A DNA stretch of 32,000 bases from Edaphobacter aggregans (GTDB lineage: Bacteria > Acidobacteriota > Terriglobia > Terriglobales > Acidobacteriaceae), in assembly GCF_003945235.1 (NCBI RefSeq), contig NZ_RSDW01000001.1, positions 930,001 to 962,000 on the forward strand, written 5' to 3'. A program made the translations under genes and the position numbers. Below the pieces are notes generated by a model. It was not told where the DNA came from. It did not search any database and saw only the letters and a program-made list of their open reading frames with translations. Of this stretch, positions 2,006-32,000 are shown piece by piece. Position 1 is the first letter of the stretch, and each line of letters begins with the position of its first letter.

Positions 2006-3109
2006 TTATCGCTGCACGCGAGCCCCGCCGCCCTTCATGATGCGCTGCACCTCATCGAAGGTAGCCATAGTCGTATCACCGGGAGTAGTCATCGCTAACG
2101 CACCATGCGCGCAGCCGCAATTGACAGCCCAATCCGCGCCCTTGTCATTCAGGAAGCCATAAATCAATCCCGAAGCAAACGAGTCCCCGCCGCCAACGCG
2201 ATCAAATATCTCGAGATCGGGCATAGGCCGCGCCTCATGGAACTTGCCTTCGTAATAGCAAACGGCTCCCCAATCATTCACACTCGCCGTCTTCGCATGA
2301 CGCAGCGTAGTCGCCACTGCCCTGAAGTTCGGGAACGTAGCCACCGCCTTCTCGATCATCTTGCGGAAGTTCGCCGAATCAAGCTCACCCAGATCCTCGC
2401 CAACGCCCTCAATCTCAAATCCCAGCGCCGCCGTAAAGTCCTCTTCATTGCCGATCATCACATCGACATACGAAGCCAGCTCACGATTCACCTCAGTTGC
2501 CCGAGCCTTCCCGCCAATCGACTTCCACAGCGAGTCGCGATAATTCAAGTCATAGCTGATCATCACGCCATGCTTCCGAGCCGCGACCATCGCCTCCTTC
2601 GCCACCTCAGGCGTAGTCTCGCTCAGTGCGCAGAAAATCCCGCCCGTATGAAACCAGCGCGAACCCTCCTTGCCAAAAATCTCATCCCAATCGATCTGTC
2701 CCGGCTTCAACTGGCTCACCGCAGTATGCCCACGGTCCGAGCAGCCCAGCGCCGCACGCACACCAAACCCACGCTCGGTAAAGTTCAACCCATTGCGCGT
2801 AGTCCGTCCCACACCGTCATACTTCGTCCACACCACATGCGACTGATCCACGCCGCCTTGCAGCATCAAGTCCTCAAGCAACCTGCCCACCGGATTATCC
2901 GCCACTGCCGTCACAATCGCAGTCTTCAATCCAAAGCAACGCCGCAGCCCGCGAGCGACGTTGTACTCACCGCCACCCTCCCACACGTTGAACTGCCGCG
3001 CTGTCGCCACCCTGACATCACCCGGATCCAGCCTTAGCATCACCTCGCCCAGGCTCACCAGATCCCACTTACACTCTTCCTTCTTGCGAATCACCAAACT
3101 CTTCGTCAC
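2006..3109 (-). CDS. kdgK: 2-dehydro-3-deoxygluconokinase (PfkB family)
   Basis: The ORF track gives 2006..3223. I place the start at GTG 3109-3107, which overlaps the kduI TAG stop (TAGTG). The N-terminus VTKSLVIRKKEECKWDLVSLGEVMLRLDPGD then fits the KdgK pattern. C-terminal DRVGGGDSFASG is the PfkB motif. Confidence 0.85.
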   Translation of the reverse strand: MTKSLVIRKKEECKWDLVSLGEVMLRLDPGDVRVATARQFNVWEGGGEYNVARGLRRCFGLKTAIVTAVADNPVGRLLEDLMLQGGVDQSHVVWTKYDGVGRTTRNGLNFTERGFGVRAALGCSDRGHTAVSQLKPGQIDWDEIFGKEGSRWFHTGGIFCALSETTPEVAKEAMVAARKHGVMISYDLNYRDSLWKSIGGKARATEVNRELASYVDVMIGNEEDFTAALGFEIEGVGEDLGELDSANFRKMIEKAVATFPNFRAVATTLRHAKTASVNDWGAVCYYEGKFHEARPMPDLEIFDRVGGGDSFASGLIYGFLNDKGADWAVNCGCAHGALAMTTPGDTTMATFDEVQRIMKGGGARVQR

Positions 3110-3939
3110 TATTTCAACTCCGCGATGGCAACACCATCCATGTCGTCGTACGCCTGATTTTCTCCGCCCATACCCCAGCAGAATCCATAGTTCTTCGTTC
3201 CAACTCCAGCATGGATCGACCACCCCGGAGACACCACGACTTCTTTGTCCGCCACCACTAGATGACTCGTAGCATCCGGAGGCCCCATCAAGTGCAGCAC
3301 CCTATGCGCGGGGTCAACATCAAAGTAGAAATAAACCTCGCTGCGCCGCATATGTGTATGCGGAGGCATCGTATTCCAATTGCTCCCCGATGACAGCAGC
3401 GTAAAACCCATCACCAGCTGGCAGCTCTTGATGCCCTCTTTGTAAATAGCCTTATAAATCGTGCGCTTATTGCACGTCTCCACGCTGCCCAGCTCAAGTC
3501 CCTTCATATCCGCGAACTTCACCATCGCCGTCGGATACTCCGCATGCGCCGGATAGCTCAACAGATAAAAGCAAGCCGAAGCCGAAGCGTCTGCACTGGC
3601 AAACGTAACCTCTTTGCTCCCGCGCCCCACATAAAGACAATCCAGCCTGTCCATCGCGAAGGTCTTGCCATCGACAGTCACCGCGCCCGGGCCCCCGATA
3701 TTCAGCACCCCAAGCTCACGCCGCTCCAAAAAATAATCAGCGCGCAACTCCGGCTCCGTCTCCAGCTTCAACTCATCGGTCGTCGGAACTGCAGACCCAA
3801 TCACCGTGCGGTCAAGATCCACATAAGCAAACTCAATCTCTCCCGGCTGAAACATCCCCTCCAGAAGAAACGTCTCTCGCAGCTCTTCGGTATTCATCAA
3901 CCCATACCGAACCGCATCTGCCATCTGATACAGCCTCAT
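3109..3939 (-). CDS. kduI: 5-dehydro-4-deoxy-D-glucuronate isomerase
   Basis: 276 aa, collinear with E. coli KduI as I recall it (FLERRELGVLNIGG, WNTMPPHTH.RR.EVYFYF, SPGWSIHAGVGT, WGMGGENQ.YDDMD). Confidence 0.9.
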   Translation of the reverse strand: MRLYQMADAVRYGLMNTEELRETFLLEGMFQPGEIEFAYVDLDRTVIGSAVPTTDELKLETEPELRADYFLERRELGVLNIGGPGAVTVDGKTFAMDRLDCLYVGRGSKEVTFASADASASACFYLLSYPAHAEYPTAMVKFADMKGLELGSVETCNKRTIYKAIYKEGIKSCQLVMGFTLLSSGSNWNTMPPHTHMRRSEVYFYFDVDPAHRVLHLMGPPDATSHLVVADKEVVVSPGWSIHAGVGTKNYGFCWGMGGENQAYDDMDGVAIAELK

Positions 3940-4055
3940 TCAACTCCTCCAAACCTGCGTTCTCAGTATAGCCATCTCAACCTGTCTCCTACTTCGTCTG
4001 CGGCGTGGAAATCTCCTGCTATCATTGCCCTGAATTTCAGCGCCGAGGAGACTGA

Positions 4056-5699
4056 ATGCAGAAGCTTCGCATCGCAACACACCTCCGCCACGCAGCCCTC
4101 CTTCTTACCGCGCTCCACACTCTTCCGGCGTTCACACAACCTTCGCCCGATCATAGCCACGTTCACTTCATCGTGCATGCACCCTCCATCCTTACCGCTC
4201 CGATTAGCGGACGTCTCCTCATCTTCCTCAAGCCCGGCACCGGAGACAACGAAGTAAGTACAGACGAACTTCGTCCAACAGCCGCCTGGGTCGGAGCAAG
4301 AGAAGTCCAGAGCCTCAGCGCAGGTGCGTCCGTGGAAATCGACCCCGACGCCGAGGACATGGCATTCCCCTCTCCCTTCGCCTCCATCACCCCCGGCGAC
4401 TACGAAGTCCAGGCCGTCCTCGACATCGACCACACCTACAACTACAGCGGCCGAAGCCCACAAGACTGGATCAGTCCCGTCCTCGATCTTTCCCACTGGA
4501 CTCCCGGCGAAGGCCCCGAACCTACCCTTGAACTCACCCAACACCCCACAGAGGATCCCGCCCGTACCGCCTCCCTCGCAAAAGCCAATGCTCAGGTAGC
4601 CCCTGGAGTAGTCCAGCTCGAACAGCTTCAAAGCCCGCTCCTCACCCGCTTTTGGGGTCACCCTGTCAACCTCCAGGCATGGGTCGTCCTGCCCCCCGGC
4701 TACACCGAACACGCCAAAGAACGCTACCCCACCGTCTATTGGACCCACGGATTCGGCGGCAACTTGGAATACTCCCTCGCTAGCGGGTTACGCCTGCGCG
4801 ACCGCATGAACGAAGGCAAAATGCCTCCCATGATCTGGGTCATGCTCGACGAATCCTGCCCGCAAGGCACCCATGAATTCGCCGACTCCGTAAACAACGG
4901 CCCCTGGGGCGCAGCGCTAACAACGGAGCTCCTTCCTTACCTCGAATCCAAATACCGCATGGACGCCCGTCCCACCGGACGACTTCTCAACGGCCACTCC
5001 AGCGGCGGCTGGGCCACCCTGCAGCTTCAGGTCAACTATCCCAAAATCTTCGGCGGCACATGGTCCACCTCGCCCGACCCCAGCGACTTCCACGACTTCA
5101 CCAACGCCGACCTCTACGCTCCCAACGCAAACCTCTACCGCACCCCCGATGGCGCACTCATCCCCATCATGCGCGATCACGGCAAAGTTCTCTCCACGCT
5201 CCAGGAGTTAGCCCAACTCGAGCAGGTCCTCGGCCCCTACGGTGGCCAATTGGCCTCGTTCGAATGGGTCTTCTCGCCCAAAAACAACTCCGGCGCTCCC
5301 CAGCAAATGTTCAACCGCGCTACCGGCGCTGTAGACCCAGCCGTCGTCTCCTACTGGCGCGATCACTACGATCTCGCACACATCGTCGAAACCAACTGGC
5401 CCATCCTCAAGCCCGACCTGAAAGGCAGAATCCACCTCATCGTCGGTACCGCCGACACCTTCTACCTCGACGGAGCCGCGCACAAATTCGAAGCAGTCCT
5501 CAACCACCTAGGCGCAGACCCGCACTTCACCTATCTACCCGATCGCACACACTTCGATCTCTATGCCGTCAACCAGGATCGCTACGCACTCTTCGACCAG
5601 ATCAGCGCAGAGATGTACGCCGTCGCTCGGCCAAATTCACACTGGCAGCCCCATCCTCCTACAGCTTCGACACCTCAGCCTTCACCACAAAGCAAGTAA
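4056..5699 (+). CDS. Secreted alpha/beta-fold esterase (putative esterase / esterase D-like family)
   Basis: 547 aa. ATG at 4056 is preceded by GAGGAG (5-nt spacing). Signal-like N-terminus. Serine-hydrolase nucleophile elbow LLNGHSSGGWATL. PTVYWTHGFGG is typical of this family. Confidence 0.65.
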   Translation: MQKLRIATHLRHAALLLTALHTLPAFTQPSPDHSHVHFIVHAPSILTAPISGRLLIFLKPGTGDNEVSTDELRPTAAWVGAREVQSLSAGASVEIDPDAEDMAFPSPFASITPGDYEVQAVLDIDHTYNYSGRSPQDWISPVLDLSHWTPGEGPEPTLELTQHPTEDPARTASLAKANAQVAPGVVQLEQLQSPLLTRFWGHPVNLQAWVVLPPGYTEHAKERYPTVYWTHGFGGNLEYSLASGLRLRDRMNEGKMPPMIWVMLDESCPQGTHEFADSVNNGPWGAALTTELLPYLESKYRMDARPTGRLLNGHSSGGWATLQLQVNYPKIFGGTWSTSPDPSDFHDFTNADLYAPNANLYRTPDGALIPIMRDHGKVLSTLQELAQLEQVLGPYGGQLASFEWVFSPKNNSGAPQQMFNRATGAVDPAVVSYWRDHYDLAHIVETNWPILKPDLKGRIHLIVGTADTFYLDGAAHKFEAVLNHLGADPHFTYLPDRTHFDLYAVNQDRYALFDQISAEMYAVARPNSHWQPHPPTASTPQPSPQSK

Positions 5700-5800
5700 A
5701 CCGTCACATTCAGTAACGACGCCGTCTGATACAACATCCCTGCAAGCTCACGACCGCCCCCAATACATCGCACCCATCCCATGCGATACATTGGCTTAAC

Positions 5801-6568
5801 ATGCAAAACGCACTCGATCTCTTCCGCCTCGACAACAAAGTCGCTCTCGTCTCCGGTTCCGCCAGCGGCCTCGGAGCCGCCATCGCCACAGCACTCGCAC
5901 AAGCCGGAGCAACCGTAGCCTGCCACGGCAACCGCCGCCCCGCCGATGATACCGCCGCCGCCATCAATGCCGCTGGCGGCAAAGCTCACGCCTTCCAAGC
6001 CGACCTCTCCGCCACCGACGGAGCCGAGCACCTCTTCAATCAAGTCCTCGCCTCTCTCAGCCGCGTCGACATCCTCATCAACAACGCCGGCACCATCCAC
6101 CGCGCCGCCGCCGAAGAGGTCGCCCTCGAAGACTGGGACCGCGTCCTTCAGGTAAACCTCACCAGCCCCTTCCAACTCTCCCAACTCGCCGCCCGCAACA
6201 TGATCCCCCGTGGCCACGGCAAGATCGTCAACATCGCCTCGCTCCTCAGCTTTCAGGGAGGAATCCGCGTCCCCGCCTACTCGGCCAGCAAAGGCGGCAT
6301 CGCCCAACTCACCAAGGCCCTCGCCAACGAGTGGGCGCCCAAAGGCATCCAGGTCAACGCCATAGCCCCCGGCTACTTCGCCACCACCAACACCGAAGCC
6401 CTCCAGGCCGACGAGACCCGCAACCGCCAGATCCTCGAACGCATCCCCGCCGCCCGCTGGGGCCAGCCGCAAGACCTCGCCGGAGCAGCACTCTTCCTAA
6501 GCTCCGCCGCCAGCGACTACGTCACAGGAACCATTCTCACCGTAGACGGCGGCTGGATGGGCCGCTAG
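5801..6568 (+). CDS. kduD: 2-dehydro-3-deoxy-D-gluconate 5-dehydrogenase (SDR)
   Basis: 255 aa. Very close to E. coli KduD over the C-terminal half as recalled (NIASLLSFQGGIRVPAYSASKGG, ANEWAPKGIQVNAIAPGYFATTNT, ILERIPAARWG, DYVTG..L.VDGGW). Confidence 0.9.
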   Translation: MQNALDLFRLDNKVALVSGSASGLGAAIATALAQAGATVACHGNRRPADDTAAAINAAGGKAHAFQADLSATDGAEHLFNQVLASLSRVDILINNAGTIHRAAAEEVALEDWDRVLQVNLTSPFQLSQLAARNMIPRGHGKIVNIASLLSFQGGIRVPAYSASKGGIAQLTKALANEWAPKGIQVNAIAPGYFATTNTEALQADETRNRQILERIPAARWGQPQDLAGAALFLSSAASDYVTGTILTVDGGWMGR

Positions 6569-6860: not shown

Positions 6861-7940
6861 CTACTCAATCCCCGGCAACTCCACCCCGCCCCGCTCGCTC
6901 GAAAGATAAGCCGCCTCCACCGTCCGCATCGTATCCATCGCATCCTCGACGCTGGTAGGCAGAGTCGTTGCCTCACCCTGCACAAAAGCCTGCAGCGACC
7001 CCATCGACCCCATAAACGCATCCGGAAACCAATTCCCGCTCACCGGCCCATCCTTCCACCCGCCATCCCCGCAAACGATGTACTCCAAATTATCCGGCAA
7101 CCCAACCGGATAATTCAGATTCACCCCCATCTGCGCCCGCATCGCACCCTTCATTCCCTCCCACTGCACAAAGCTTCGCTGCATATTCGGATCAAAATCA
7201 TGGCTATGATTTGAAGCAATAAACACCCGCTTATCATCCCCATAATCAAACGTGATCACGCTCTTGGTCGCCGCCAATTCCGCCGTACGCGGACTCTTCA
7301 CCGTCTTTGCGTACACACCCCGCGGATTCCCAAACCAGCTACGCACCAGATCCACATAGTGAATCGAATGGTAAAGAATCTCCAGCCGCGGAGCCGTACT
7401 CAAAAAGCTCCAGAGCTCCCAAGGCATATGCACACTAACCGACACTTCCATGTCGTGCAACTCACCCAGAGCACCCGTCCCATGCAATGCCCGAGCCGCC
7501 AGCATATTCGGAGCCCACCGCAACTGAAAATTAATCGCCGCAACCAACCCCTTCGCCCGGCATATCTTCAAAATCTCCACCGCCTCAGCCAGCGTCTCCC
7601 CCATCGGCTTCTGGATCAGCACCGCCGCTCCATCCGGCAGCTGTGGCAGCACCCCCGCAATCGCCTTAGCCGGCAATGCTACATCGAATACCGCATTCTT
7701 CGGAGCATACCGAATCGCCTCTGCAATCGAAGTCGTGGCAAACGGAATCCCAAAGCCCTTAGCCAACCCCTCCGCCTTCTCGAGGTTCACATCCACCAAC
7801 GCCGCCACAGGAAACCTAGCCTTCTTATAAGCCGGCAGATGCGAATCATGCACAATCCCACCCGATCCAATCACCACAATCGGCCGCGCCACCTTAGGCC
7901 TCGGAGCCACCGCCTCCCGCATCACCTTCTCCAAATCCAT
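6861..7940 (-). CDS. Gfo/Idh/MocA family NAD(P)-dependent oxidoreductase
   Basis: Rossmann N-terminus RPIVVIGSGGIVHDSHLPAY and a QKP (EKP-like) motif. Start placed at ATG 7940 (AAAGGGG SD 5 nt upstream). ATG 7970 is an alternative. The 8063 start in the ORF track would overlap the neighbouring gene. Confidence 0.8.
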   Translation of the reverse strand: MDLEKVMREAVAPRPKVARPIVVIGSGGIVHDSHLPAYKKARFPVAALVDVNLEKAEGLAKGFGIPFATTSIAEAIRYAPKNAVFDVALPAKAIAGVLPQLPDGAAVLIQKPMGETLAEAVEILKICRAKGLVAAINFQLRWAPNMLAARALHGTGALGELHDMEVSVSVHMPWELWSFLSTAPRLEILYHSIHYVDLVRSWFGNPRGVYAKTVKSPRTAELAATKSVITFDYGDDKRVFIASNHSHDFDPNMQRSFVQWEGMKGAMRAQMGVNLNYPVGLPDNLEYIVCGDGGWKDGPVSGNWFPDAFMGSMGSLQAFVQGEATTLPTSVEDAMDTMRTVEAAYLSSERGGVELPGIE

Positions 7941-11329: not shown

Positions 11330-13120
11330 TCAATTCGCAGCCACAGCCTTCTGCCCAGCCATGTACTCCCGAGCATGCGCCATCTCAGCCATCCCTTGAT
11401 CCCCATCCTTCCATGCCGCAACAAACCTCGCATACTCAGCCCGAGCCGCCGCCGCATCCCCCGCCGCCTCGCTACTCCGAGCCATCCCATACAGCGGAAA
11501 GCCCGACTTCGGCCTCTCCACCAACGCCGCTTCATAAGCTTTATGCGCACCGGCATAATCGCCCGCCCGCATCAACACCGCACCCTCCGCTTCACCCACC
11601 GGCCGGATATAGTTAGGAGGCTCACGATAACCCAGCCCCTTCTCCTCCTGTGCCGCCTCATCAAACAAAGCCTTCGCCTCGCTCAGCTTCTTCTGCTCCG
11701 CAAGAATCGCTCCCCGCAACTCCAGCGACATAATCGACAAACTAGACACCAGCGGCCCCGGCAAAGCATCCGGCATCACCGCGGCCATCATCGGAGCCTT
11801 CGCCTCCTCCTTCTTTTTCTTTGGAGCATCTTTCACCTTCTGCGACATACGCCACAGCTCCGCATCCAGCCTCGTCGAAGCCGCCTGCGCCGCAACTAGA
11901 TCCCCCGCCTGCACTGCAATCATGCCGCGAGCAAACTCCCCCAATTGCCCCGCAAGGAACTTCAGATTCTCGAGCTTCTCCTCTGGCTTGGCCCCCTCTA
12001 GCATCTTCTGCACACTGGCCCAATCGCCCGTCCGCAGAGCCACCGGAAGCTTCGGATCCAGCCGAGTCATCCCATCCCTCGGCGTACCGATGTACAGTGT
12101 CTCCCGAAACTGCCCTCTCGCCCCCGAAAGCTTCCCCGACAACTCCGTAGCCTCCCGCAGCTTCCCCTCTTCCATCAAATTCGCAATGCCATACATCAGA
12201 TTATGGACATAATTCCAGTCATCATCCACACCCACATTCTGCGAGCGCATATATTCCTCATCTACCGCCGTCGAAGCCGCAAACCAATGCTCCGCCTGCG
12301 CATAATCCCCCACCCGATAAAAAATATGCCCCGGCATATGCACCATATGTCCCGACGCCGGAGCCAGACTAGCCAGCACCGTCGCACTCTCCAGCGCCTT
12401 CTCCGGATGCGCGCTCGGCTCCATCGCATGAATCCAGTAGTGGTGCGCAGCCGAATCATTCGGAGCCGCCTTCAGCACCTCTTCCAGAATCGCAATCTCT
12501 TCTTTCGTGCCCTTCTTCGGCTCCCCAGCCTCGTCATACCCATCGCGAAGACTGCCCGACAAAAAGATCTTCGCTTGCAAATCCGTCGGATACTCCTTCA
12601 CCAGCTGCCGCCAGATCGCAATCTCCTTCGAGTCATCGGGCTTCGCCCCGGGCTCTGCAGCCTTCGCCGCCTCATGCCCCGCAACCGCCGCTTCGATATA
12701 AAGCTGCTCGTTCTTCCCCGCGCGACTCTTCAGCCGCACTGCATTGGCTAACGCCTGATCTGCATAAGCATTCGCATCGCTGCTCCTGAAGATCAAAGCC
12801 TGATACAGCCCCCAGTAACACATCGCGCAATCCGGATCCACCCGCACCGCCTGCTCAAACGCCCTCAACGACTCGTAATCCCAAAAATCATGCAGCAGAT
12901 TCAGCCCCTGATCAAACCAAACCTGAGCCTCAGGCTTCGCCGTAATCGCCAGATGGCTGTTCCCTATCCCAGTCATCTTCACCGGAACCGGCAGCTTCTC
13001 CGGCGCGGGAATCTCCTTCATCGCCCCCATGTCATGCCCTGCCATATTCATCTGCGCCACAGCCGGACAAGCAGCCATCAGAACCATCGAAGCAGCAAAA
13101 CTCAAGCAACTAACCAGCAT
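11330..13120 (-). CDS. Secreted TPR-repeat protein
   Basis: Start placed at ATG 13120 (AGAGGG SD); GTG 13135 is an alternative. Signal peptide MLVSCLSFAASMVLMAACPAVAQ. Recurrent TPR-like A/Y/L-rich helical repeats. Confidence 0.75.
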   Translation of the reverse strand: MLVSCLSFAASMVLMAACPAVAQMNMAGHDMGAMKEIPAPEKLPVPVKMTGIGNSHLAITAKPEAQVWFDQGLNLLHDFWDYESLRAFEQAVRVDPDCAMCYWGLYQALIFRSSDANAYADQALANAVRLKSRAGKNEQLYIEAAVAGHEAAKAAEPGAKPDDSKEIAIWRQLVKEYPTDLQAKIFLSGSLRDGYDEAGEPKKGTKEEIAILEEVLKAAPNDSAAHHYWIHAMEPSAHPEKALESATVLASLAPASGHMVHMPGHIFYRVGDYAQAEHWFAASTAVDEEYMRSQNVGVDDDWNYVHNLMYGIANLMEEGKLREATELSGKLSGARGQFRETLYIGTPRDGMTRLDPKLPVALRTGDWASVQKMLEGAKPEEKLENLKFLAGQLGEFARGMIAVQAGDLVAAQAASTRLDAELWRMSQKVKDAPKKKKEEAKAPMMAAVMPDALPGPLVSSLSIMSLELRGAILAEQKKLSEAKALFDEAAQEEKGLGYREPPNYIRPVGEAEGAVLMRAGDYAGAHKAYEAALVERPKSGFPLYGMARSSEAAGDAAAARAEYARFVAAWKDGDQGMAEMAHAREYMAGQKAVAAN

Positions 13121-23419: not shown

Positions 23420-24682
23420 TTATTGTCCTAGAAAAACCGGCTTGATATGGCGATCAAAAAGGTTCGTCGTAACATTACGCGCCACCACAGCTTCATTGGC
23501 CTCGAGCGCATTCAAGTACCGCTCACCCATCTTAGCCGCCACCTTGAAGCCCACATGCAGCAGTTGCCGGAAGCTCGGGTTATACGCCTTGTTGCTCTGA
23601 TCATGGCGCAACGCCGACGTGAACTGCTCACTGGTCCAGCCATTCACCTCTTCCGGAGACGGCAGCTTCGCCGGATCGATATCGATCACCGTCGCATAAG
23701 GAGCGCACAACTCCTCACGATGCGAATACGCCTCCGCATAAACTTCCTTGGCAATCTCCAACCCCGATCCGCCAGCCTCAGCCAGCCCGATCAGCTCTTC
23801 CAGCCAGGTCGTCCCAGCCGTCTTCAAATGCACACCCGCGCCAAACCTCTTCACCGCGTCATGAATCGCCTGATAGATCGAAAACTTGTCCGACCCCGAG
23901 TGAACGCTCAGCTTCAAATTCTCAGGCAGCCCATACGTCTTGATCGCAAACGCAATCGCCGCAAGGTCCTCGTTGAACTCCTTGGTGAACTGCGGCACAT
24001 CCCCTACATAGTCCACGCCCTTGTTGAACCGTCCCGTAAACTTCGGCGCAATCGTCTGGATCGGAATCTTCTCATCCGCAATCGCCGCCAGAATAATCAG
24101 CAGCTCTACCGGAGTCTGAGGATAGTCCGTCTCATCCATCGAGACCTCAGGCACGAAATTCCCCGCACCCTTCTTCTCCACCAGAAACCGATAAATCCGC
24201 CCCGCATCCTGCACCGCAGCCAGAAACTTATTGGCCACGCCCGTCACAAACGCCTCATCCGTCTTGAAAGGCTCGTCGATATGCGGAATCGTCACCGTCC
24301 CCACCAGCTCCGGATGCCGATTCACAAACGCCGCCACATCCTTCGCGTCCGCCGGCTTGCCAATCATCTCCGCCACATCCAGCGTAAAGAAGTCACACGG
24401 CGCCAGAAACCGCTCCACCGTATTCAAATTGATATGGTCCGCATCCAGAAAATAAGGCTTAGTCCACCCCAGCTCCTTCACCGCCGCATCGGCGGCCACG
24501 CGCGTCTGGCTCGGCTCGGAGCCGATAATCATGTGCTCGCGGTTCGACTTGTTCCACACCGGTGAAACCTCAACCCCCGCGTTGGCGGCCATCACACAAG
24601 CCGCAAGCTGCGCCTTCGCCTGATGCGCAAACCGGTCACCCACCCCTACTGAAAATTTAGGAAGTTTCAATCCTTCAGCCAT
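23420..24682 (-). CDS. uxaE: Tagaturonate/fructuronate epimerase (UxaE family)
   Basis: Start placed at ATG 24682 (GAAGG SD); the ORF-track start 24691 is GTG. Motifs FLDADHI, SVHSGSDKFSIY and LKTAGTTWLEE match my recollection of the UxaE family (Thermotoga-type). Confidence 0.8.
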   Translation of the reverse strand: MAEGLKLPKFSVGVGDRFAHQAKAQLAACVMAANAGVEVSPVWNKSNREHMIIGSEPSQTRVAADAAVKELGWTKPYFLDADHINLNTVERFLAPCDFFTLDVAEMIGKPADAKDVAAFVNRHPELVGTVTIPHIDEPFKTDEAFVTGVANKFLAAVQDAGRIYRFLVEKKGAGNFVPEVSMDETDYPQTPVELLIILAAIADEKIPIQTIAPKFTGRFNKGVDYVGDVPQFTKEFNEDLAAIAFAIKTYGLPENLKLSVHSGSDKFSIYQAIHDAVKRFGAGVHLKTAGTTWLEELIGLAEAGGSGLEIAKEVYAEAYSHREELCAPYATVIDIDPAKLPSPEEVNGWTSEQFTSALRHDQSNKAYNPSFRQLLHVGFKVAAKMGERYLNALEANEAVVARNVTTNLFDRHIKPVFLGQ

Positions 24683-24811
24683 TGCCAACACCCTTCTTCA
24701 TCACAAAATCGATTGGTCTAACCACTTTCAACCGTCCCAGCATACTCACTCTAGCCCACAAAGGGCAACTCCCCAGTGAGCTTTAGCATGTACCATCCTT
24801 TTTTCTTGCTT

Positions 24812-24877
24812 TTATCCGCCTTATCCCCTGATCACTGTTACGCCTTTGCTCCGCGCACCTCCGCGTCAATCCGCGGT
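24812..24877 (-). repeat. Phased CGG-repeat element (same family as 13201-13239), between the SGNH stop and uxaE
   Basis: Minus-strand reading: GCGGATTGAC GCGGAGGTGC GCGGAGCAAAG GCGTAACAGTGATCAGGGGATAAGGCGGATAA. Shares atcacYgttacgcc and taatccgcg blocks with 31017-31072. Confidence 0.6.
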
Positions 24878-24879
24878 CG

Positions 24880-26121
24880 CTAGTAAGCAAACAGTGAAAG
24901 AGGAATAGCCTCTCCCATCACCCGATACCCCGCGGCTGAGGGATGAAGGTGATCGCCCGAGTCATACGCAGACAGCATCTGCTCAGGATGAGCCGGATCG
25001 CGCACCACCTTGTCGAAATCCACCACCGCATCAAAGTTCTTCGTCGTCCGAATCCACTGATTGATCGCCTGTCGGTCAGCATCACTCGCCGGACTTGCGC
25101 GATAGTACCCCGACCCGCCAAACGGCAGAATCGTCGCCCCAATCACCTTGATCCCATGCGCATGAGCCCGCAGCGCCATCTGCTCATACGCCGAAAGGAT
25201 CCGATGCACCAGAGCATCATGCTCCGCCTGCCCCACATTCCCCTCGCGCGTAAACGTCCCCAGATCGTTGATGCCCTCCAGCACAATCACATACCGCACT
25301 CCCGCCGGAGCCATCACATCGCGATCGAACCGTGCCAGCGCATTCGGCCCCAGCCCATCCAGCAGCACGCGATTCCCGCCTGTACCCGCATTCAAAACCC
25401 CAACCGTGTGCGTCTTCTTGTCCGCCTGCAGCCGCCGCGCCAGCACATCCGGCCATCGATCATTCCCATTCGTCGTCGAGCCACGACCATCCGTAATCGA
25501 ATCCCCCAGCGTCACAACAGCAGTACCCGGCACTGCCACATCCACACCCGAAACCTGATACCAGTGCTCCACCTTCTTAGCGTCAGGCAAGCTTACCGCC
25601 GAAACCAGGTCCCCATGCGCCACATACGAAGTCGCCCGCGACCCCGGATGCCCCGTCTGCGAAGCAGGAGCCGCATCCATATGCAGCGTAATCACAAGGT
25701 CCGACAACGGCCCTACCGGAAACGCAACCGGATCAGAGATAAACTCCGCGCCCGCAGGCACCGTAACATCCTGAGCCCCGCCAAAAGTCAGAGCCTTATC
25801 CGTAGCCGGATCGATCGCACCACCACCCGCAGCCGCAGGCCGAGCCACATGTACCGCAGTCAAATGCAACGGAGCCGTCCCAAACGCATTCGACACATGC
25901 ACCCGCAACTCAGGCCCACCCACCGATAGATGAACAATCTGCCGCAGCGTAGCATCCCGGAGGTCCTCCGCCGAAAGCGAGTTCTGCGGCTCAGGCAACT
26001 GCTGCGAAGCAGCCCACGAGCCAACCCAGTTCGCAGGCGTGGTCCCCTGCCCCACCGCGGCCACGGGAGCCAAAACGAAGGCCAAACCTAAAATGGAAAG
26101 CGACCCAGTTCTCTTCATCAT
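24880..26121 (-). CDS. Secreted SGNH/GDSL hydrolase (candidate carbohydrate esterase) with N-terminal beta-rich domain
   Basis: Start placed at ATGATG 26121/26118, 7 nt after the LarA-like stop. Signal MMKRTGSLSILGLAFVLAPVAAVGQG. SGNH blocks LGDSITDG, AGTGGN, EGINDL, DHLHP. Confidence 0.8.
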   Translation of the reverse strand: MMKRTGSLSILGLAFVLAPVAAVGQGTTPANWVGSWAASQQLPEPQNSLSAEDLRDATLRQIVHLSVGGPELRVHVSNAFGTAPLHLTAVHVARPAAAGGGAIDPATDKALTFGGAQDVTVPAGAEFISDPVAFPVGPLSDLVITLHMDAAPASQTGHPGSRATSYVAHGDLVSAVSLPDAKKVEHWYQVSGVDVAVPGTAVVTLGDSITDGRGSTTNGNDRWPDVLARRLQADKKTHTVGVLNAGTGGNRVLLDGLGPNALARFDRDVMAPAGVRYVIVLEGINDLGTFTREGNVGQAEHDALVHRILSAYEQMALRAHAHGIKVIGATILPFGGSGYYRASPASDADRQAINQWIRTTKNFDAVVDFDKVVRDPAHPEQMLSAYDSGDHLHPSAAGYRVMGEAIPLSLFAY

Positions 26122-26128
26122 TCGGTAG

Positions 26129-27403
26129 CTAGTCCTTAAACCTTCCCTCATAAGCCCAAAGCCCAAGCCCCGGATTCGAGATATAGAAAATCTCCTCCCC
26201 ATCCACAACATTCCACCCATCCTTCAATTTCTCCGGATCATACTTGGCCGAGTACTCCGCCAGATCCCCATACTCAAAGTGGACGCTCTCGATCTCCTCG
26301 TGCGTCAGGTGTCCCGGACAATACCGAATCGTGAACCGCCCCTCGCTCGACCCGTGAATCAAATGAGCCGCCGCGCTCAAATTCCCCGCCAGCGCCGCAT
26401 CCTCCTTCACCAGCTCTAGCGTCTTCGGAGTCCCGCAATACCCATACTTCCGAATCAGTACATCGATCGCCGCATCCTCGCCAAACTCATGCACCCCCGG
26501 AGCCAGCACAATCAACTCCGCATCGTCAGCCAGAGCCATCCTCGTCCGGTACACGCTCTTATTCCCCAGCCACGTACTCCGAAACTCATGCGGATCAAGA
26601 AACACCACAGCTTTCTTGATCTCCCGATCCATCATCTTAAAGTTAACCTTCAAACTCAGTGCTGCAGCTAACTCAAAACACTCGACATCATCGCCAATAT
26701 AAAGCCCGCGTATCACCAGCTTGCCAGCGTCATTCTTTCCCACCACCGACTGCACATACACAATCGGCAGATTCGTCGCAAAGTGATCGCTCGCATAATT
26801 CAGCACCCGCCGCACCGGAGTATCGGCCCGCCCCATCATCCGTTCCATCCCATACACCGCCCCCAGAAAGTGGCTGCGATGAATCCCAATCGACCCACCC
26901 GTCCCCACAAAGATGTTCTTGTTGTAGTTCGCCATCCCCACCACTTCATGCGGAACCACCTGTCCGATCGACAGAATCAAATCGTGCCCACCATCGCGCA
27001 ACAGCTTGTTCACCTGCGCCGGCCAGCAGTAGTCCACCTTGCCCTCGCTCACCTCATACAGAAACTCTCCCGGCACATCCCCCAGCGTCACGACATCATG
27101 CCGCCAGTCATGCACTCTGAAAAGCTCCCGCGGAGTAGCCCCATACATCGTCGCAATCTCGCTATCGGTCATCGCCTTATGCGTTCCCAGCGCCGGAAGC
27201 ACATCCGTCAGACGATCCCCGTAGTACTGCCACGCCAGCTCCGTCAGCACGCCGCTCTGCGAATGAAACCGCGTAAAGTCCGGCGGTACCGCCAGCACCT
27301 TCTTCCGCTCACCCAGCTTCTCCAGCGCAGAAAACAAACCAGCCTTCACATCGGCGGCAGACATCTCAGTTATCGGACTTCCAGCAGCAAAAAATACACT
27401 CAT
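26129..27403 (-). CDS. LarA-superfamily (DUF2088 / lactate-racemase-like) nickel-pincer-dependent isomerase homologue
   Basis: Start placed at ATG 27403 (MSVFFAAG...). ALGTHKAMTDSEI aligns with LarA ATGFHRPSTHEEL (His108). VVPHEVVGMANYNK aligns with ESHFFAGFSGGRK (His174, Lys184). GIHRSH aligns with MANHS (His200). All compared with the L. plantarum LarA sequence as I recall it. Confidence 0.85.
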   Translation of the reverse strand: MSVFFAAGSPITEMSAADVKAGLFSALEKLGERKKVLAVPPDFTRFHSQSGVLTELAWQYYGDRLTDVLPALGTHKAMTDSEIATMYGATPRELFRVHDWRHDVVTLGDVPGEFLYEVSEGKVDYCWPAQVNKLLRDGGHDLILSIGQVVPHEVVGMANYNKNIFVGTGGSIGIHRSHFLGAVYGMERMMGRADTPVRRVLNYASDHFATNLPIVYVQSVVGKNDAGKLVIRGLYIGDDVECFELAAALSLKVNFKMMDREIKKAVVFLDPHEFRSTWLGNKSVYRTRMALADDAELIVLAPGVHEFGEDAAIDVLIRKYGYCGTPKTLELVKEDAALAGNLSAAAHLIHGSSEGRFTIRYCPGHLTHEEIESVHFEYGDLAEYSAKYDPEKLKDGWNVVDGEEIFYISNPGLGLWAYEGRFKD

Positions 27404-27572
27404 GGCAACCAATCTTACTTGCACCGGACCATGATCCACCAGCCAGCCTTCACCCACGAATCACCACCAGGTGATACCCTTCTCAGCCAAAGAGGTCCAA
27501 AGAGCCAGAGACGCAGCCAGAGACCCCACCCGGGCCCAGTAAGAAAGTTTTCGACGGAGACCGTAGCCACCC

Positions 27573-29030
27573 ATGAAGCGACCATCCATCCTCAGGCCAC
27601 TCCAAAGATGGATCACAGCATCCATCCTTCTCGGGTTCCTCGTCGCCCTCACCGCAGCCATCACTCTGCCCACACACGCCCAAACCACCGACACCCTGCA
27701 TCAAGTCAAAAAGATCTACGTCGACCCCATCACCGGAAAATCCGACTCGACCGCCGCACGCAAGCTAATCATCGATAACCTGCAAAAAGACCACACCGTC
27801 CAAATCGTCGACGATCCCACCCAGGCCGACGCAATCCTGCAAGTCAGGATGGAGACTTGGGTCCGAGGCTATGTCTCCGTCAACCCGCGGTCCACCAGCG
27901 GCTACCCCGCCTATGGCGGCTTCCTCTCCGCACAACTCCTCGGCAAAGGCGGCGATCTTCTCTGGTCCAATATCGTCACTCCCAGCCGATATGCCTCCTC
28001 CGGCATCCGTCACGACCTCGCCGACCAGATCGCCCACAAACTCCTCGTCGCCCTCACCAGCTCGCCCTCCAAAGGCCCTGTCCGCATCCTCAAGGCCGCC
28101 GGCGCCACCTTTCCCGCGCCTCTCTACCTGGCCTGGATAGAGTCCTTCCGCCAGCACCGCCCCGACATTCAGATCACCTACAACAGCATCGGCTCCGAAG
28201 CCGGCCTCGAGCAGCTCCACGACAGCAAAGTCACCTTCGCCGCCTCCGATGTCGCCCTCTCCGACGCCTACATGCGCCAGATGCCCGTAAAGCTCCTCCA
28301 GTTCGCCACCGTCCTCGGCGCCATCGTGCCCGTCTATAACCTGCCCCAGATCGGCAACAACCTCCGCTTCACGCCCGAGATCCTCGCCAACATCTACCTG
28401 GGAAATATCCGCTCCTGGGATGACCCCGCCATCCGTGCCGTCAACCACGGCGTCCCCCTGCCCAGCGCTCCCATCGTCATCATCCACCGCAACGACGGCA
28501 GCGGTACCACCTTCGCCTTCACCGACTTCCTCAGCAAAACCAACCCCGACTGGAAAGCCACCGTCGGCAGCGGCACCACCGTCAAATGGCCCGTCGGCAA
28601 AGGCGTCCAGGGTAACGACGGCGTCGCCGCCAGCGTCGCTGAAACACCCAACTCCATCGGCTACACCGAGCTCACCTACGCCATCCAGCGCCAACTCAGC
28701 TACGGAATCGTCCGCAACGCCGCCGGCAACTTCATGCAGGCCAACCTGGCCACCCTCGCCGCTGCCGCTATCGCCCCTCACGGGACCTCTGCCATCGCCT
28801 CCTCGCTCACCAACGCCCCCGGCAAATACGCCTACCCCATCACCAGCTTCACGTGGCTCCTCGTCCCCGAATCAATCCCCGATCCTGTCACCAAATCCGC
28901 CGTCGCCGACTTCCTCGAATGGATCCTCACCGCCGGCCAGAAGGAAGTCTCAGCCCTCGCATACCACCCCTTACCCAAAGAAACCGTCACCCGCGAACTA
29001 CAAATGCTAGCCGCCTTCAAAGCAAAGTAG
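27573..29030 (+). CDS. PstS-family phosphate-binding protein fused to a ~170-aa N-terminal membrane-anchored domain
   Basis: The C-terminal ~310 aa are PstS-like (GATFPAPLY..W, SIGSEAG, FAASD, RNDGSGTT, IGYTELTYA, YPITSFTWLL). The N-terminus has one TM/signal segment plus an unassigned domain. Confidence 0.8.
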   Translation: MKRPSILRPLQRWITASILLGFLVALTAAITLPTHAQTTDTLHQVKKIYVDPITGKSDSTAARKLIIDNLQKDHTVQIVDDPTQADAILQVRMETWVRGYVSVNPRSTSGYPAYGGFLSAQLLGKGGDLLWSNIVTPSRYASSGIRHDLADQIAHKLLVALTSSPSKGPVRILKAAGATFPAPLYLAWIESFRQHRPDIQITYNSIGSEAGLEQLHDSKVTFAASDVALSDAYMRQMPVKLLQFATVLGAIVPVYNLPQIGNNLRFTPEILANIYLGNIRSWDDPAIRAVNHGVPLPSAPIVIIHRNDGSGTTFAFTDFLSKTNPDWKATVGSGTTVKWPVGKGVQGNDGVAASVAETPNSIGYTELTYAIQRQLSYGIVRNAAGNFMQANLATLAAAAIAPHGTSAIASSLTNAPGKYAYPITSFTWLLVPESIPDPVTKSAVADFLEWILTAGQKEVSALAYHPLPKETVTRELQMLAAFKAK

Positions 29031-29086
29031 GTCTTTGGTCGGAGCGCAGGTCTTTAGCCCTGCGAAATATCACCCCCGATGAACGA

Positions 29087-29100
29087 GGGGCTTCAGCCCC
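29087..29100. repeat. Hairpin ggggc-ttca-gcccc (same family as 8857/8910)
   Basis: Perfect 5-bp stem with tetraloop. A second hairpin cgcagg-N8-cctgcg is at 29045-29064. Confidence 0.45.
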
Positions 29101-29164
29101 GGCCCCTCCCCCGCGCCACAGCAACCAAACGAGACTGTCACAAAACTCTGCGCGGCCCCATTCC

Positions 29165-29179
29165 CATCGCCGGTGTAAC
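29165..29179. repeat. Left arm of a perfect 15-bp inverted repeat (catcgccggtgtaac)
   Basis: Its reverse complement gttacaccggcgatg occurs at 30441-30455. The two arms bracket the only segment of the window with reversed strand composition. Confidence 0.8.
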
Positions 29180-29208
29180 CTCCGAGTTGCCCCACAATAC
29201 GGCAACAA

Positions 29209-30252
29209 CTATTTTTTCGGGGCGTAGGGGCCAGCGGTGGGTTTGCCTTGCGTGTCTTTGAGGGGTCCGAGTTCATCGCCAACTCCGCGGCCGATCGCGA
29301 CGATCTCACTGGCGCTCTGGAAGCAAGTGAAATCGGGCCGATCGCGCCATGCAAATGGGCCACAGAGCCGTTTGCCTGCGCCGAGCGCGGCGTCGTGCAC
29401 GATGTTGATCAGTCGTTCGTAGTCGGGTGAACCCATCTTGTAGCCGGAGAAGTTTGCCAGGTCTCCGCTTGCGGCGAAGATGGCGGTGACGCCTGGAATC
29501 GCGGCGATTGCGCGCGCGTCCTTGACGCCTTCGAGGGTCTCGATCATTTCGACGAGGACGACGTTCTTGTTGATGGTGTTGCGATAGCCGCCAGGGACGT
29601 TGCCCCAGACCAAGGGATCGAAGGCCTGGCCGCCGCCCAGGCTGCGCTTGCCAAGCGGCGGGTACATTGTCCAGTCGCGCGCGGCGGTGCCTTCTTCGAC
29701 GGAGCGGACGGTTGGAATCACGATGACGAGCGCCCCCAGATCCATGGCGTGCTGAATTTCGCGCTCGTCGGTATAGGCGACACGAACGCCGGGTACCGCT
29801 TTGGCGTGGGGACAGGCCTTCCACATGCGGCCGACGGCATCCCAGTCGCGGGCGTTGTGCTGCATCTCGGTCCAGATGAAGTCGTAGCCGGCGTTGGCCA
29901 TGGCACAATAGGTCTCCGGAGTATCAGTGCTGAAGACTGTGCCACCGGTGATCTTATCGCCCTTTATCATCTTGATCATCACTGGATTCCATATGGGTGT
30001 ATCGGGCGAGATATCGTATGCCGGGCCGTACTTCCATTTCGCCGGATCGAATGGGCCCTGGTTGATGGCGGCTGGGGGGGCTGTGGTGATGGCGCCGGAG
30101 TCCTTACCGGCGAGTGCGGCGAGGGGGAATTGTGTTTTGCCCGCGTCGGCGTTATTCGAATAGGGATCGGCACTGGCGGTGGTTTGCGCGTAGGCCTGTA
30201 AGGTGATGCACGTGAGTACCACTGTGAGTGCCGCAGCTGAAAATCGACTCAT
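29209..30252 (-). CDS. HpcH/HpaI-family class II (metal-dependent) 2-keto-3-deoxy-acid aldolase homologue with signal peptide
   Basis: Start placed at ATG 30252 (AAGGGAG SD, 6-nt spacing). Signal MSRFSAAALTVVLTCITLQAYAQ. Family pattern GYDFIWTEMQH, VRV, MIETLEG (metal Glu), AASGDLA (metal Asp). Confidence 0.8.
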   Translation of the reverse strand: MSRFSAAALTVVLTCITLQAYAQTTASADPYSNNADAGKTQFPLAALAGKDSGAITTAPPAAINQGPFDPAKWKYGPAYDISPDTPIWNPVMIKMIKGDKITGGTVFSTDTPETYCAMANAGYDFIWTEMQHNARDWDAVGRMWKACPHAKAVPGVRVAYTDEREIQHAMDLGALVIVIPTVRSVEEGTAARDWTMYPPLGKRSLGGGQAFDPLVWGNVPGGYRNTINKNVVLVEMIETLEGVKDARAIAAIPGVTAIFAASGDLANFSGYKMGSPDYERLINIVHDAALGAGKRLCGPFAWRDRPDFTCFQSASEIVAIGRGVGDELGPLKDTQGKPTAGPYAPKK

Positions 30253-30440
30253 TGCAAACTCCCTTTCTTTGCGAGATGACGATACACGAGGAGGTTGCAG
30301 GCAGAATAGACGGGAGACCCAGGGTATCAATCGAGGGTGAGTCGGTAGAACTATTGCAGAACGTTGTTCCGCGCGTCGTTGCCTTGGCGCAATTATTCCG
30401 TTGTCCCTTGCGATTGTCGATTGTGGACGAATTACCGGCA

Positions 30441-30455
30441 GTTACACCGGCGATG
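30441..30455. repeat. Right arm of the 15-bp inverted repeat (gttacaccggcgatg)
   Basis: Perfect reverse complement of 29165-29179. Preceded by a degenerate direct copy (ttaccggca). Confidence 0.8.
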
Positions 30456-30494
30456 AACTGGATTCCCGGATTGAGTTTCGTAACAATCTCAAAC

Positions 30495-30989
30495 TCACAC
30501 ACGCATCCCCACCACCACCTTCGCCGTAGTCACCAGCTGCCCAACATGCCGCTGCGTATGATCCGCGCAATGAACCAGCAACCCACCCACACTCGTAGGC
30601 AAATTCTTCCTCCCCACCCCACGCCTATCACCAAAACTCTCAGGCGAGATCGCAATCACCCGCTTCACCGCCACCTCCACCCCTTCAGCAAACTCCATCA
30701 ACGAAGCCTCTCTCCCAGCTGACTCCATCTCCGTCTTCAGAGCCTCCATCTGCCGCTCACTCAACTGCTGCCCCTCCGCATACGTCAGCAGCCGATCCAG
30801 CGACCGAGCCATATGCCGCAAATGGAACCCCACCGAAGGCAGCCCCAGCGGCCTCGCCTCTAGCTCCTCATCACTCAACCCCTCACACCACTTCGCAACA
30901 TCCTCCGACGCCAGTTCCAGCGCATGGATCACCCCACGCCGAACCGCATCCACCTCCAACCGAGTCCCTCGCAACCAAGGCTCAACCAT
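30495..30989 (-). CDS. DinB-family protein
   Basis: Start placed at ATG 30989 (GGAGGGAGGTG upstream); the ORF-track start 31007 is TTG. His triad context (GFHLRHMARS, LLVHCADHTQRHVGQ). Confidence 0.75.
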   Translation of the reverse strand: MVEPWLRGTRLEVDAVRRGVIHALELASEDVAKWCEGLSDEELEARPLGLPSVGFHLRHMARSLDRLLTYAEGQQLSERQMEALKTEMESAGREASLMEFAEGVEVAVKRVIAISPESFGDRRGVGRKNLPTSVGGLLVHCADHTQRHVGQLVTTAKVVVGMRV

Positions 30990-31016
30990 CAACACACCTC
31001 CCTCCAATCAACTCTT

Positions 31017-31072
31017 ATTAGCCTTTATCTTTCTTATCACCGTTACGCCGTTAATCCGCGCAAATCCGCCGT
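31017..31072 (-). repeat. Phased CGG-repeat element (fourth copy) between the binding-protein stop and the DinB gene
   Basis: Minus-strand reading: GACGGCGGATTTG CGCGGATTAA CGGCGTAA CGGTGATAAG AAAGATAAAGGCTAAT. The gene-proximal end CGGTGATAAG resembles CGGTGTTAAG of the larE copy. Confidence 0.6.
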
Positions 31073-31076
31073 CACT

Positions 31077-32000
31077 TCAAAGCCCCTTCCCTTTCCGAAA
31101 TTCCCGCACCACATCCCCCACATCCCGATGCTGCCCATCCACCGCATCATTCATTCCCTGCACCTCCTCAGCGCTGACCCTGCCCGCCAACCGATCCATA
31201 GCCACCTGAATCCCCGGATGCCGCTGCAACGAATCCGCCCTCACCAACGGCACCGCCTCATACGGAGGAAAGTAGTGCTTATCATCCTCCAGCGCCACAA
31301 ACCCCAGCGCCCGAATCGGCCCATCGGTCGAGTTCCCCGCCACCATATCCACCTGTTCGTTCTGCAGCGCCCGATAAAGCAGCCCCAGATCCATCGTCCG
31401 AGGAGCATCCTTGAACCGCAGCCCATACGTCGCCTCCAGCCCCCGCAACCCATCCGGCCGCTGCTCAAACTCATACCCCACCCCCAGCCGCCAATCCGGA
31501 GCATGCGCCACAGCATCCGATATCGTCCTCACCCCCAGCCGCCGAGCATCGTCCCCCCGAATCACCATCGCAAACGTATCCTCAAATCCAAGCCCCCGCC
31601 CCACCTTCACCCCATACCGCTGCCAGTACAGCCGTCGCACCGTCTGGAAGACCTGCGCCTCATCCCGCTGCCCCACCGGAGGCAACGGCTGCTTCAAAAT
31701 CGCCGTCAGCGCCGTCCCCGAATACTCCACATACCCATCAATCCGCCCACTCACCAGAGCCTGCTGACAGATGTAGCTCCCCGCCAGATAGAACCGCCGC
31801 TCCACCCTCTGCCCCGTCACCGCTTCAATCTCTTGAGCCAGCAACTCCCCCAGCACCACCTGCTCCGTAAAGTTCTTCGCCCCAATCGTCACCCGGCTCG
31901 ACCTCGGCGGAGCACACCCCAAAAAACAACCACCAAAAACCATCCCGCAAACCACACTTGCCAGACAAAAAACCGCTAAGTAACCACCGTTTTTCCCAGA
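31077..32000 (-). CDS. ABC-transporter substrate-binding protein, glycine betaine/choline (OpuAC/OpuBC) family; 5' end may lie beyond the window
   Basis: Family pattern VTIGAKNFTEQVVLGEL, DGYVEYSGTAL, GFEDTFAMV, DMVAGNSTDG, LEDDKHYFPPYEAVP. Lipobox-like FLGC. The frame stays open from GTG 31955 / ATG 31943 up to position 32000. Confidence 0.75.
   Translation of the reverse strand, partial: SGKNGGYLAVFCLASVVCGMVFGGCFLGCAPPRSSRVTIGAKNFTEQVVLGELLAQEIEAVTGQRVERRFYLAGSYICQQALVSGRIDGYVEYSGTALTAILKQPLPPVGQRDEAQVFQTVRRLYWQRYGVKVGRGLGFEDTFAMVIRGDDARRLGVRTISDAVAHAPDWRLGVGYEFEQRPDGLRGLEATYGLRFKDAPRTMDLGLLYRALQNEQVDMVAGNSTDGPIRALGFVALEDDKHYFPPYEAVPLVRADSLQRHPGIQVAMDRLAGRVSAEEVQGMNDAVDGQHRDVGDVVREFRKGKGL

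Follow-up and report, generated by a model that had tools for sequence, protein, structure and literature searches.

The question raised by this locus is how a single-gene segment of about 1.3 kb came to oppose, in its strand composition, the DNA on either side of it in the window (the whole 32-kb stretch of Edaphobacter aggregans DNA analysed here), and what part the inverted repeat that brackets it has played. A sequence-only reading had proposed either a recent inversion or the insertion of a one-gene cassette in inverted orientation, in both cases by recombination between the repeats, and had named an invertible or mobile-cassette-like element as another possibility.

Strand composition of the window and of the reversed block

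The overall + strand GC skew of the 32-kb window is about -0.35, with values of -0.24 to -0.50 in every 500-nt window outside 29001-30500. ORFs supported by Pfam matches lie on both strands and the bias is independent of gene orientation; read on the coding strand, the third positions of + strand genes have a GC skew of -0.58 to -0.81, and those of - strand genes one of +0.37 to +0.93. The earlier description of the given strand as C/A-rich, whatever the direction of the genes, is thus borne out both by the 500-nt scan and by third-position skew on the two strands. Such extreme asymmetry is common to the lineage: the median absolute GC skew over 80 related metagenome loci is 0.24, and the value for L001, the nearest relative with an empty site, is -0.30.

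Within 29001-30500, the + strand GC skew ranges from -0.03 to +0.18 (500-nt windows; a 100-nt scan was also run). A two-composition likelihood change-point scan delimited a reversed block from 29212 (support 29198-29221) to 30481 (support 30461-30490), the sole one in the 32 kb, with a score of 104.8 versus 7.4 for the runner-up. The reversal inside the block is partial, at about +0.1, and does not mirror the -0.35 of the window. The skew computation that had been named as a check therefore reveals a local reversal, confined, as claimed, to about 29.2-30.48 kb. The switch points were also correctly placed within a few tens of nucleotides of the repeats, yet they do not fall exactly on them: the left change point lies 47 nt inside the left repeat end and the right one 26 nt outside the right repeat end. 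The features of the region are as follows, with L009 denoting metagenome contig Ga0209060_10000292, a related locus considered in detail below.

27573-29030, + strand: PstS-like phosphate-binding protein gene, the left native flank
29165-29191, + strand: left inverted-repeat arm (CATCGCCGGTGTAACCTCCGAGTTGCC), the first 15 nt being the repeat noted earlier and all 27 nt pairing with the right arm of L009
29209-30255, - strand: HpcH/HpaI-family (class II aldolase-like) gene, 348 aa, with C-rich third positions versus G-rich ones in native genes of the same strand
30256-30435, - strand: upstream non-coding part of the cassette, with two sigma-70-like consensus matches (30420-30392 and 30330-30303)
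30436-30455, + strand: shortened right arm of the inverted repeat, in which 30441-30455 exactly complements 29165-29179
30456-30485: short tail between the right arm and the change point at 30481, too short to be placed in either the cassette or the native spacer
30495-31007, - strand: DinB-family gene, the right native flank, which directly adjoins PstS in relatives

At four-fold sites, the C:G counts are 220:20 for PstS (+ strand), 0:66 for DinB (- strand), 4:136 for OpuAC (- strand), and 119:32 for the HpcH-family gene (- strand). With a GC3 skew of -0.43, the last of these does use, as had been noticed, the C-ending codons of plus-strand genes while being encoded on the minus strand.

Judged by its sequence matches, this cargo gene, the only gene inside the segment, is a member of the HpcH/HpaI class II aldolase family: the deduced protein matches PF03328 with 53.9 bits (cut-off 25) and PDB chains 7v8t, 7et8, 4b5s, and 2vws at E = 1e-15 to 1e-17. 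The gene starts with ATG, with GGGAG located 7 nt upstream. Its DNA similarity to homologues ends about 30 nt upstream of the start codon, and the upstream region of the cassette has no similarity to the upstream DNA of any homologue fetched. The protein possesses a signal-peptide-like N-terminus (MSRFSAAALTVVLTCITLQAYA) and is extended by about 90 aa ahead of the aldolase domain. Proteins of this form are conserved, with 3507 database proteins at E <= 0.001, and the top matches that carry names, few in number, are assigned to Bryobacteraceae, Bryobacterales or Acidobacteriota. Export, if it takes place, would be unusual for a class II aldolase-like protein.

The DNA to the left (window 1-27500) is a sugar-acid utilisation neighbourhood, encoding an alginate lyase, a KDPG aldolase, a PfkB-family sugar kinase, KduI, several SDRs, and a UxaE-like epimerase, together with nickel-pincer cofactor-type genes (LarA-like, Ni_insertion/LarC, AIRC/LarB-like, and NicO). 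A 2-keto-3-deoxy-sugar-acid aldolase would suit this metabolic setting.

The inverted repeat at the segment ends

The 15-mer CATCGCCGGTGTAAC at 29165-29179, with its exact complement at 30441-30455, forms the longest perfect inverted repeat in the window, where no other match to it exists even with two mismatches (0.04 expected). The bracketing repeat described from the letters alone is therefore confirmed as exact and, at up to two mismatches, unique in the window. In L009 the inverted repeat is 27 nt long with one mismatch (CATCGCCGGTGTAACYTCCGAGTTGCC). Compared with L009, the window lacks 8 nt (AACTCGGA) after position 30439, which would complete a 26/27 repeat. Because the left arm contains the exact complement of these 8 nt, they are ancestral, and the window carries a derived deletion; on this comparison, the repeat is ancestrally 27 bp long, with 8 nt of its right arm lost in the window. 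The chance of a 15/15 repeat lying within 60 nt of both change points is ~3e-5 and that of the 26/27 repeat in its L009 form is ~3e-10, the latter value indicating that the repeat genuinely belongs to the structure of the segment.

No direct repeat adjoins the arms (left flank ...CCCCATTCC, right flank AACTGGATTCC...), in agreement with the earlier statement that a flanking target-site duplication is missing; an ATTCC match in the flanks is 6 nt off register and not significant. Likewise, no recombinase or transposase domain was detected in the 32 ORFs of the window, as had been reported, nor in the 8 ORFs that L009 contains in about 5 kb beyond the window end. No second copy of the 27-mer was found, with as many as 6-7 mismatches allowed, in the window, in ~0.45 Mb of related loci or in IMG/VR, so that the idea of a common genome-wide repeat finds no support in the DNA searched, and the plasmid search returned no plasmid with the segment. 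A 13/15 near-match of the 15-mer, located downstream of DinB in L031 and L034, was judged to be due to chance, about one such match being expected in the DNA searched. Around HpcH homologues elsewhere, no inverted repeats were found beyond chance-level matches.

The arms have neither internal dyad symmetry nor a local fold. An integron attC site or a local hairpin was rejected: the two arms are separated by the gene, neither of the two regions gives a better fold than its shuffled versions, and an Rfam search gave nothing relevant. In this respect, and in having no integrase or cassette array, the segment differs from integron gene cassettes.

Related loci and the origin of the segment

The comparison comprised 81 related loci, obtained from a PstS scan of a genome collection and a DinB scan of metagenomes. 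The PstS-DinB spacer is empty, with a gap of 17-190 nt, in eight of them (L001, L010, L012, L013, L014, L015, L018, and L029). Since DinB in these eight relatives spans 73% to 94% identity to that of the window, the direct adjacency of PstS and DinB is ancestral; their spacers are too diverged from the window to fix the exact insertion boundaries.

L009 is the only one of the 81 loci in which the segment occurs, and its site and orientation there match those in the window. This contig is colinear with window 24503-31923 at ~96% identity, and includes the following tract.

28889-30701: tract near-identical to L009, with one substitution (29553) and three indels, versus ~4% divergence elsewhere

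In addition to the cassette, this tract takes in about 250-275 nt on either side of it; outside the tract, about 10 differences separate the two sequences in every 250 nt, with a maximum of 68 in one 250-nt window. An assembly artefact was discarded because L009, an independent assembly, has the same structure. The divergence is mosaic, with 0 differences in 24503-24752, 68 in 26003-26252, and almost none in 28889-30701, a pattern which suggests frequent homologous recombination in the population. In the HpcH copy of L009, a run of 6 G (L009 ~6935-6941) corresponds to 7 in the window (30074) and breaks the frame into two tblastn pieces, reflecting either a homopolymer sequencing error or an inactivated copy.

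The empty sites in eight relatives, together with the near-identity to L009, argue for an insertion and against the flip of a resident gene. The proposed synteny comparison thus distinguished the loci by the presence or absence of the segment; its orientation, on the other hand, is the same in the sole other carrier. We consider a recent insertion of the segment in the discordant orientation highly probable. Of the two alternatives offered by the sequence-only reading, the inverted-orientation insertion is consequently supported and the in-place inversion is not. Recombination between the repeats, which had been put forward as the cause, is neither needed nor shown, and both assemblies have the segment in one orientation.

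The spacer of other lineages contains unrelated genes: a 331-aa ORF in L011 (1007-2145), a 405-410-aa protein in L036 (6493-7833) and L060 (6202-7658), and a 769-aa protein in L044 (6493-9072), none of which has flanking inverted repeats beyond chance. These occupants characterize the spacer as a variable site with recurrent gene gain. The insert of L011 has a GC content of 0.50, below that of its flanks, and a weaker skew than they have; it may also be recent. Downstream of PstS, the window contains G+C-rich hairpins with CTTTAG or CTTCAG loops (29045-29064 and 29087-29100), matched by small hairpins in L001 (~11514-11534 and ~11554-11567), the rest of the spacer not being alignable. These hairpins may act as terminators or belong to a small repeat family.

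The source of the composition can be approached through the HpcH homologues of seven other contigs, in which GC3 skew always has the same sign as the flanks.

L006, L007, and L089 (unskewed genomes): homologue GC3 skew +0.05, +0.13, and +0.03, flank skew about 0
L008 and L091 (strongly skewed genomes): homologue GC3 skew -0.51 and -0.52, flank skew -0.22 and -0.26
L090 and L094 (mildly skewed genomes): homologue GC3 skew +0.24 and +0.20, flank skew +0.13 and +0.11
Window (strongly skewed): HpcH GC3 skew -0.43, flank skew +0.36, the sole discordant case

Four-fold-site identity between the window and L001 is 0.78-0.83, i.e. a divergence of only about 0.2, whereas a shift from a balanced C:G ratio of ~70:73, as in L006, to 119:32 would mean that over half of the G sites had changed. 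The time elapsed is therefore too short for the bias to have been built in place, and the gene would have come already marked by a long stay in a strongly skewed genome, on its C-rich strand. Leading strands are generally G/T-rich; by this rule, the HpcH gene would have moved from lagging-strand to leading-strand coding. The same considerations of time, together with the absence of the gene from the spacer of the eight relatives, led us to reject the simple inversion of a resident gene. An unskewed donor genome (e.g. Bryobacteraceae-like, according to database names) was also rejected, homologues there showing a GC3 skew of ~0 to +0.13 and not -0.43.

The best protein match to the HpcH-family protein (P0001) has 89% identity, with no closer donor among the matches, and exact-protein look-ups of the HpcH and DinB proteins of the window returned no match. 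In L008, a strongly skewed genome, a block of about 3 kb (~3000-6000) with a skew near -0.06, between flanks of -0.3, lies just upstream of the HpcH homologue and covers part of a DUF4062 gene and a DUF3738 gene; it is a candidate for another recent acquisition.

Explanations of the segment and their meaning

The events proposed are the following. Within one Acidobacteriaceae sub-lineage, a segment of ~1.3 kb (29165 to ~30485) would recently have entered the short gap that separates PstS from the convergent DinB gene. It consists of a single HpcH-family aldolase gene and the upstream region belonging to it, bounded by an ancestrally 27-bp inverted repeat. Its composition points to a source with the same extreme strand bias, located elsewhere in the host genome or in a relative. 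At that source the HpcH sense strand would have been the C/A-rich one; now opposite to the local bias, it would produce the reversed island, the gene having had almost no time since insertion to re-equilibrate. The extent of the identity tract suggests that strains then exchanged the cassette by homologous recombination, by way of a few hundred nucleotides of flanking DNA. The inverted repeats would represent the ends of the incoming segment, which is their simplest reading and the weakest step of the scheme. Taken as a whole, this account of a recent cassette insertion from a pre-skewed source, its spread between strains and the repeats as segment ends is, in our view, probable.

Among the alternatives, one holds that the cassette arrived on the + strand, in concordance with its surroundings, and was then flipped once by RecA-type homologous recombination between the 27-bp repeats. 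In its favour, inverted repeats of ~27 bp bracket the reversed block to within tens of nucleotides, and the GC3 skew of -0.43 resembles that of a + strand gene of this genome, only weaker. However, two events are invoked where one suffices, the time since the split from the empty-site relatives is too short, so that the bias would have been imported anyway, the known copies (window and L009) share one orientation, and the right change point falls about 50 nt beyond the stretch that such a flip would reverse. This sequence of events is regarded as unlikely.

Another explanation is that a foreign gene was incorporated by illegitimate or homology-assisted recombination, with the repeat as a coincidence or a by-product of repair that has no role in mobility. 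It accords with the failure to find a target-site duplication, further copies or a transposase, and with the unrelated spacer genes without flanking repeats in L011, L036, L060, and L044, which imply that the site accepts DNA by other routes. Pure coincidence of the repeat is nevertheless excluded at ~3e-10, and a 27-bp inverted duplication at the junctions is a rare outcome which finds no independent support at this locus. We thus hold this origin to be decidedly unlikely.

A programmed inverton, in which a site-specific recombinase encoded elsewhere flips the whole gene as a phase switch, is highly improbable: the inverted repeats at this locus are of typical inverton length, but this is a resemblance only, and against it stand the lack of an invertase in 29 kb to the left and 1.5 kb to the right within the window or in ~5 kb further in L009, promoter-like sites that lie inside the segment together with the gene, flanking genes that both point toward the segment so that a flip would change no obvious expression state, arms devoid of dyad symmetry or local fold, a single orientation in two of two assemblies, and a strong one-sided bias where frequent flipping should give mixed composition. 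The segment is like Hin/Gin-type segments, fimS, and the invertons of gut bacteria in that inverted repeats of 15-30 bp bracket ~1 kb of DNA; it differs from them in having no nearby recombinase or second orientation, and in that its flip would yield no promoter or coding switch.

Returning to the preferred insertion of a pre-skewed cassette, several known phenomena can be compared with it. Mobile insertion cassettes (MICs) and cargo MITE-like elements are exemplified by the IS231-derived MIC231 of Bacillus cereus. The segment is similar to these in being short, in having terminal inverted repeats (15/15 in the window, 26/27 in L009), a passenger gene and no transposase, and in its presence/absence polymorphism between close relatives. 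It differs from them in that no target-site duplication, second copy or matching insertion sequence was found in the DNA searched, and in that tens of nucleotides separate its repeat ends from the composition change points; in line with the mobile-cassette-like option of the sequence-only reading, it is no more than a candidate member of the MIC/cargo-MITE class. That the repeats are transposition ends of a non-autonomous cassette, with the transposase encoded elsewhere, is put forward only tentatively.

With accessory-gene gain at a variable spacer, the segment shares its position between conserved syntenic genes, the presence of other genes in this spacer in other lineages, and the near-identical tract that reaches ~250 nt into the flanks, although a 27-bp inverted repeat does not usually border insertions of that kind. 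Local GC-skew reversals (Lobry-type strand asymmetry) are established markers of recent inversion or translocation, and the block conforms to them since its skew contradicts the replichore and marks a recent change of orientation relative to replication. Unlike these markers, the block is a single gene, inserted rather than rearranged from resident DNA, and the host bias is strong enough for one gene to give a decisive signal.

To our knowledge, mobile elements of Acidobacteria have been little described. A 27-bp repeat around a single gene without a transposase is, as a single instance, a lead to a possible cargo-carrying mobile cassette in this phylum. It seems rather doubtful that the 27-bp ends are recognised by a hitherto undescribed trans-acting mobilisation system of Acidobacteriaceae, with a transposase or invertase encoded elsewhere and no target-site duplications; if this were true, the system would move or flip promoter-plus-gene cassettes, and the locus in the window would be its first observed member.

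The gain of one accessory gene is in itself routine, and it is the strand bias of the host that makes this instance so unusually easy to see. In a lineage with so strong a replication-strand bias, the recent history of a single gene can be read from composition alone, which here tells both the former strand of the HpcH-family gene and its recent arrival. Such genomes thus offer a favourable natural system in which gene transfers and rearrangements can be dated and oriented.
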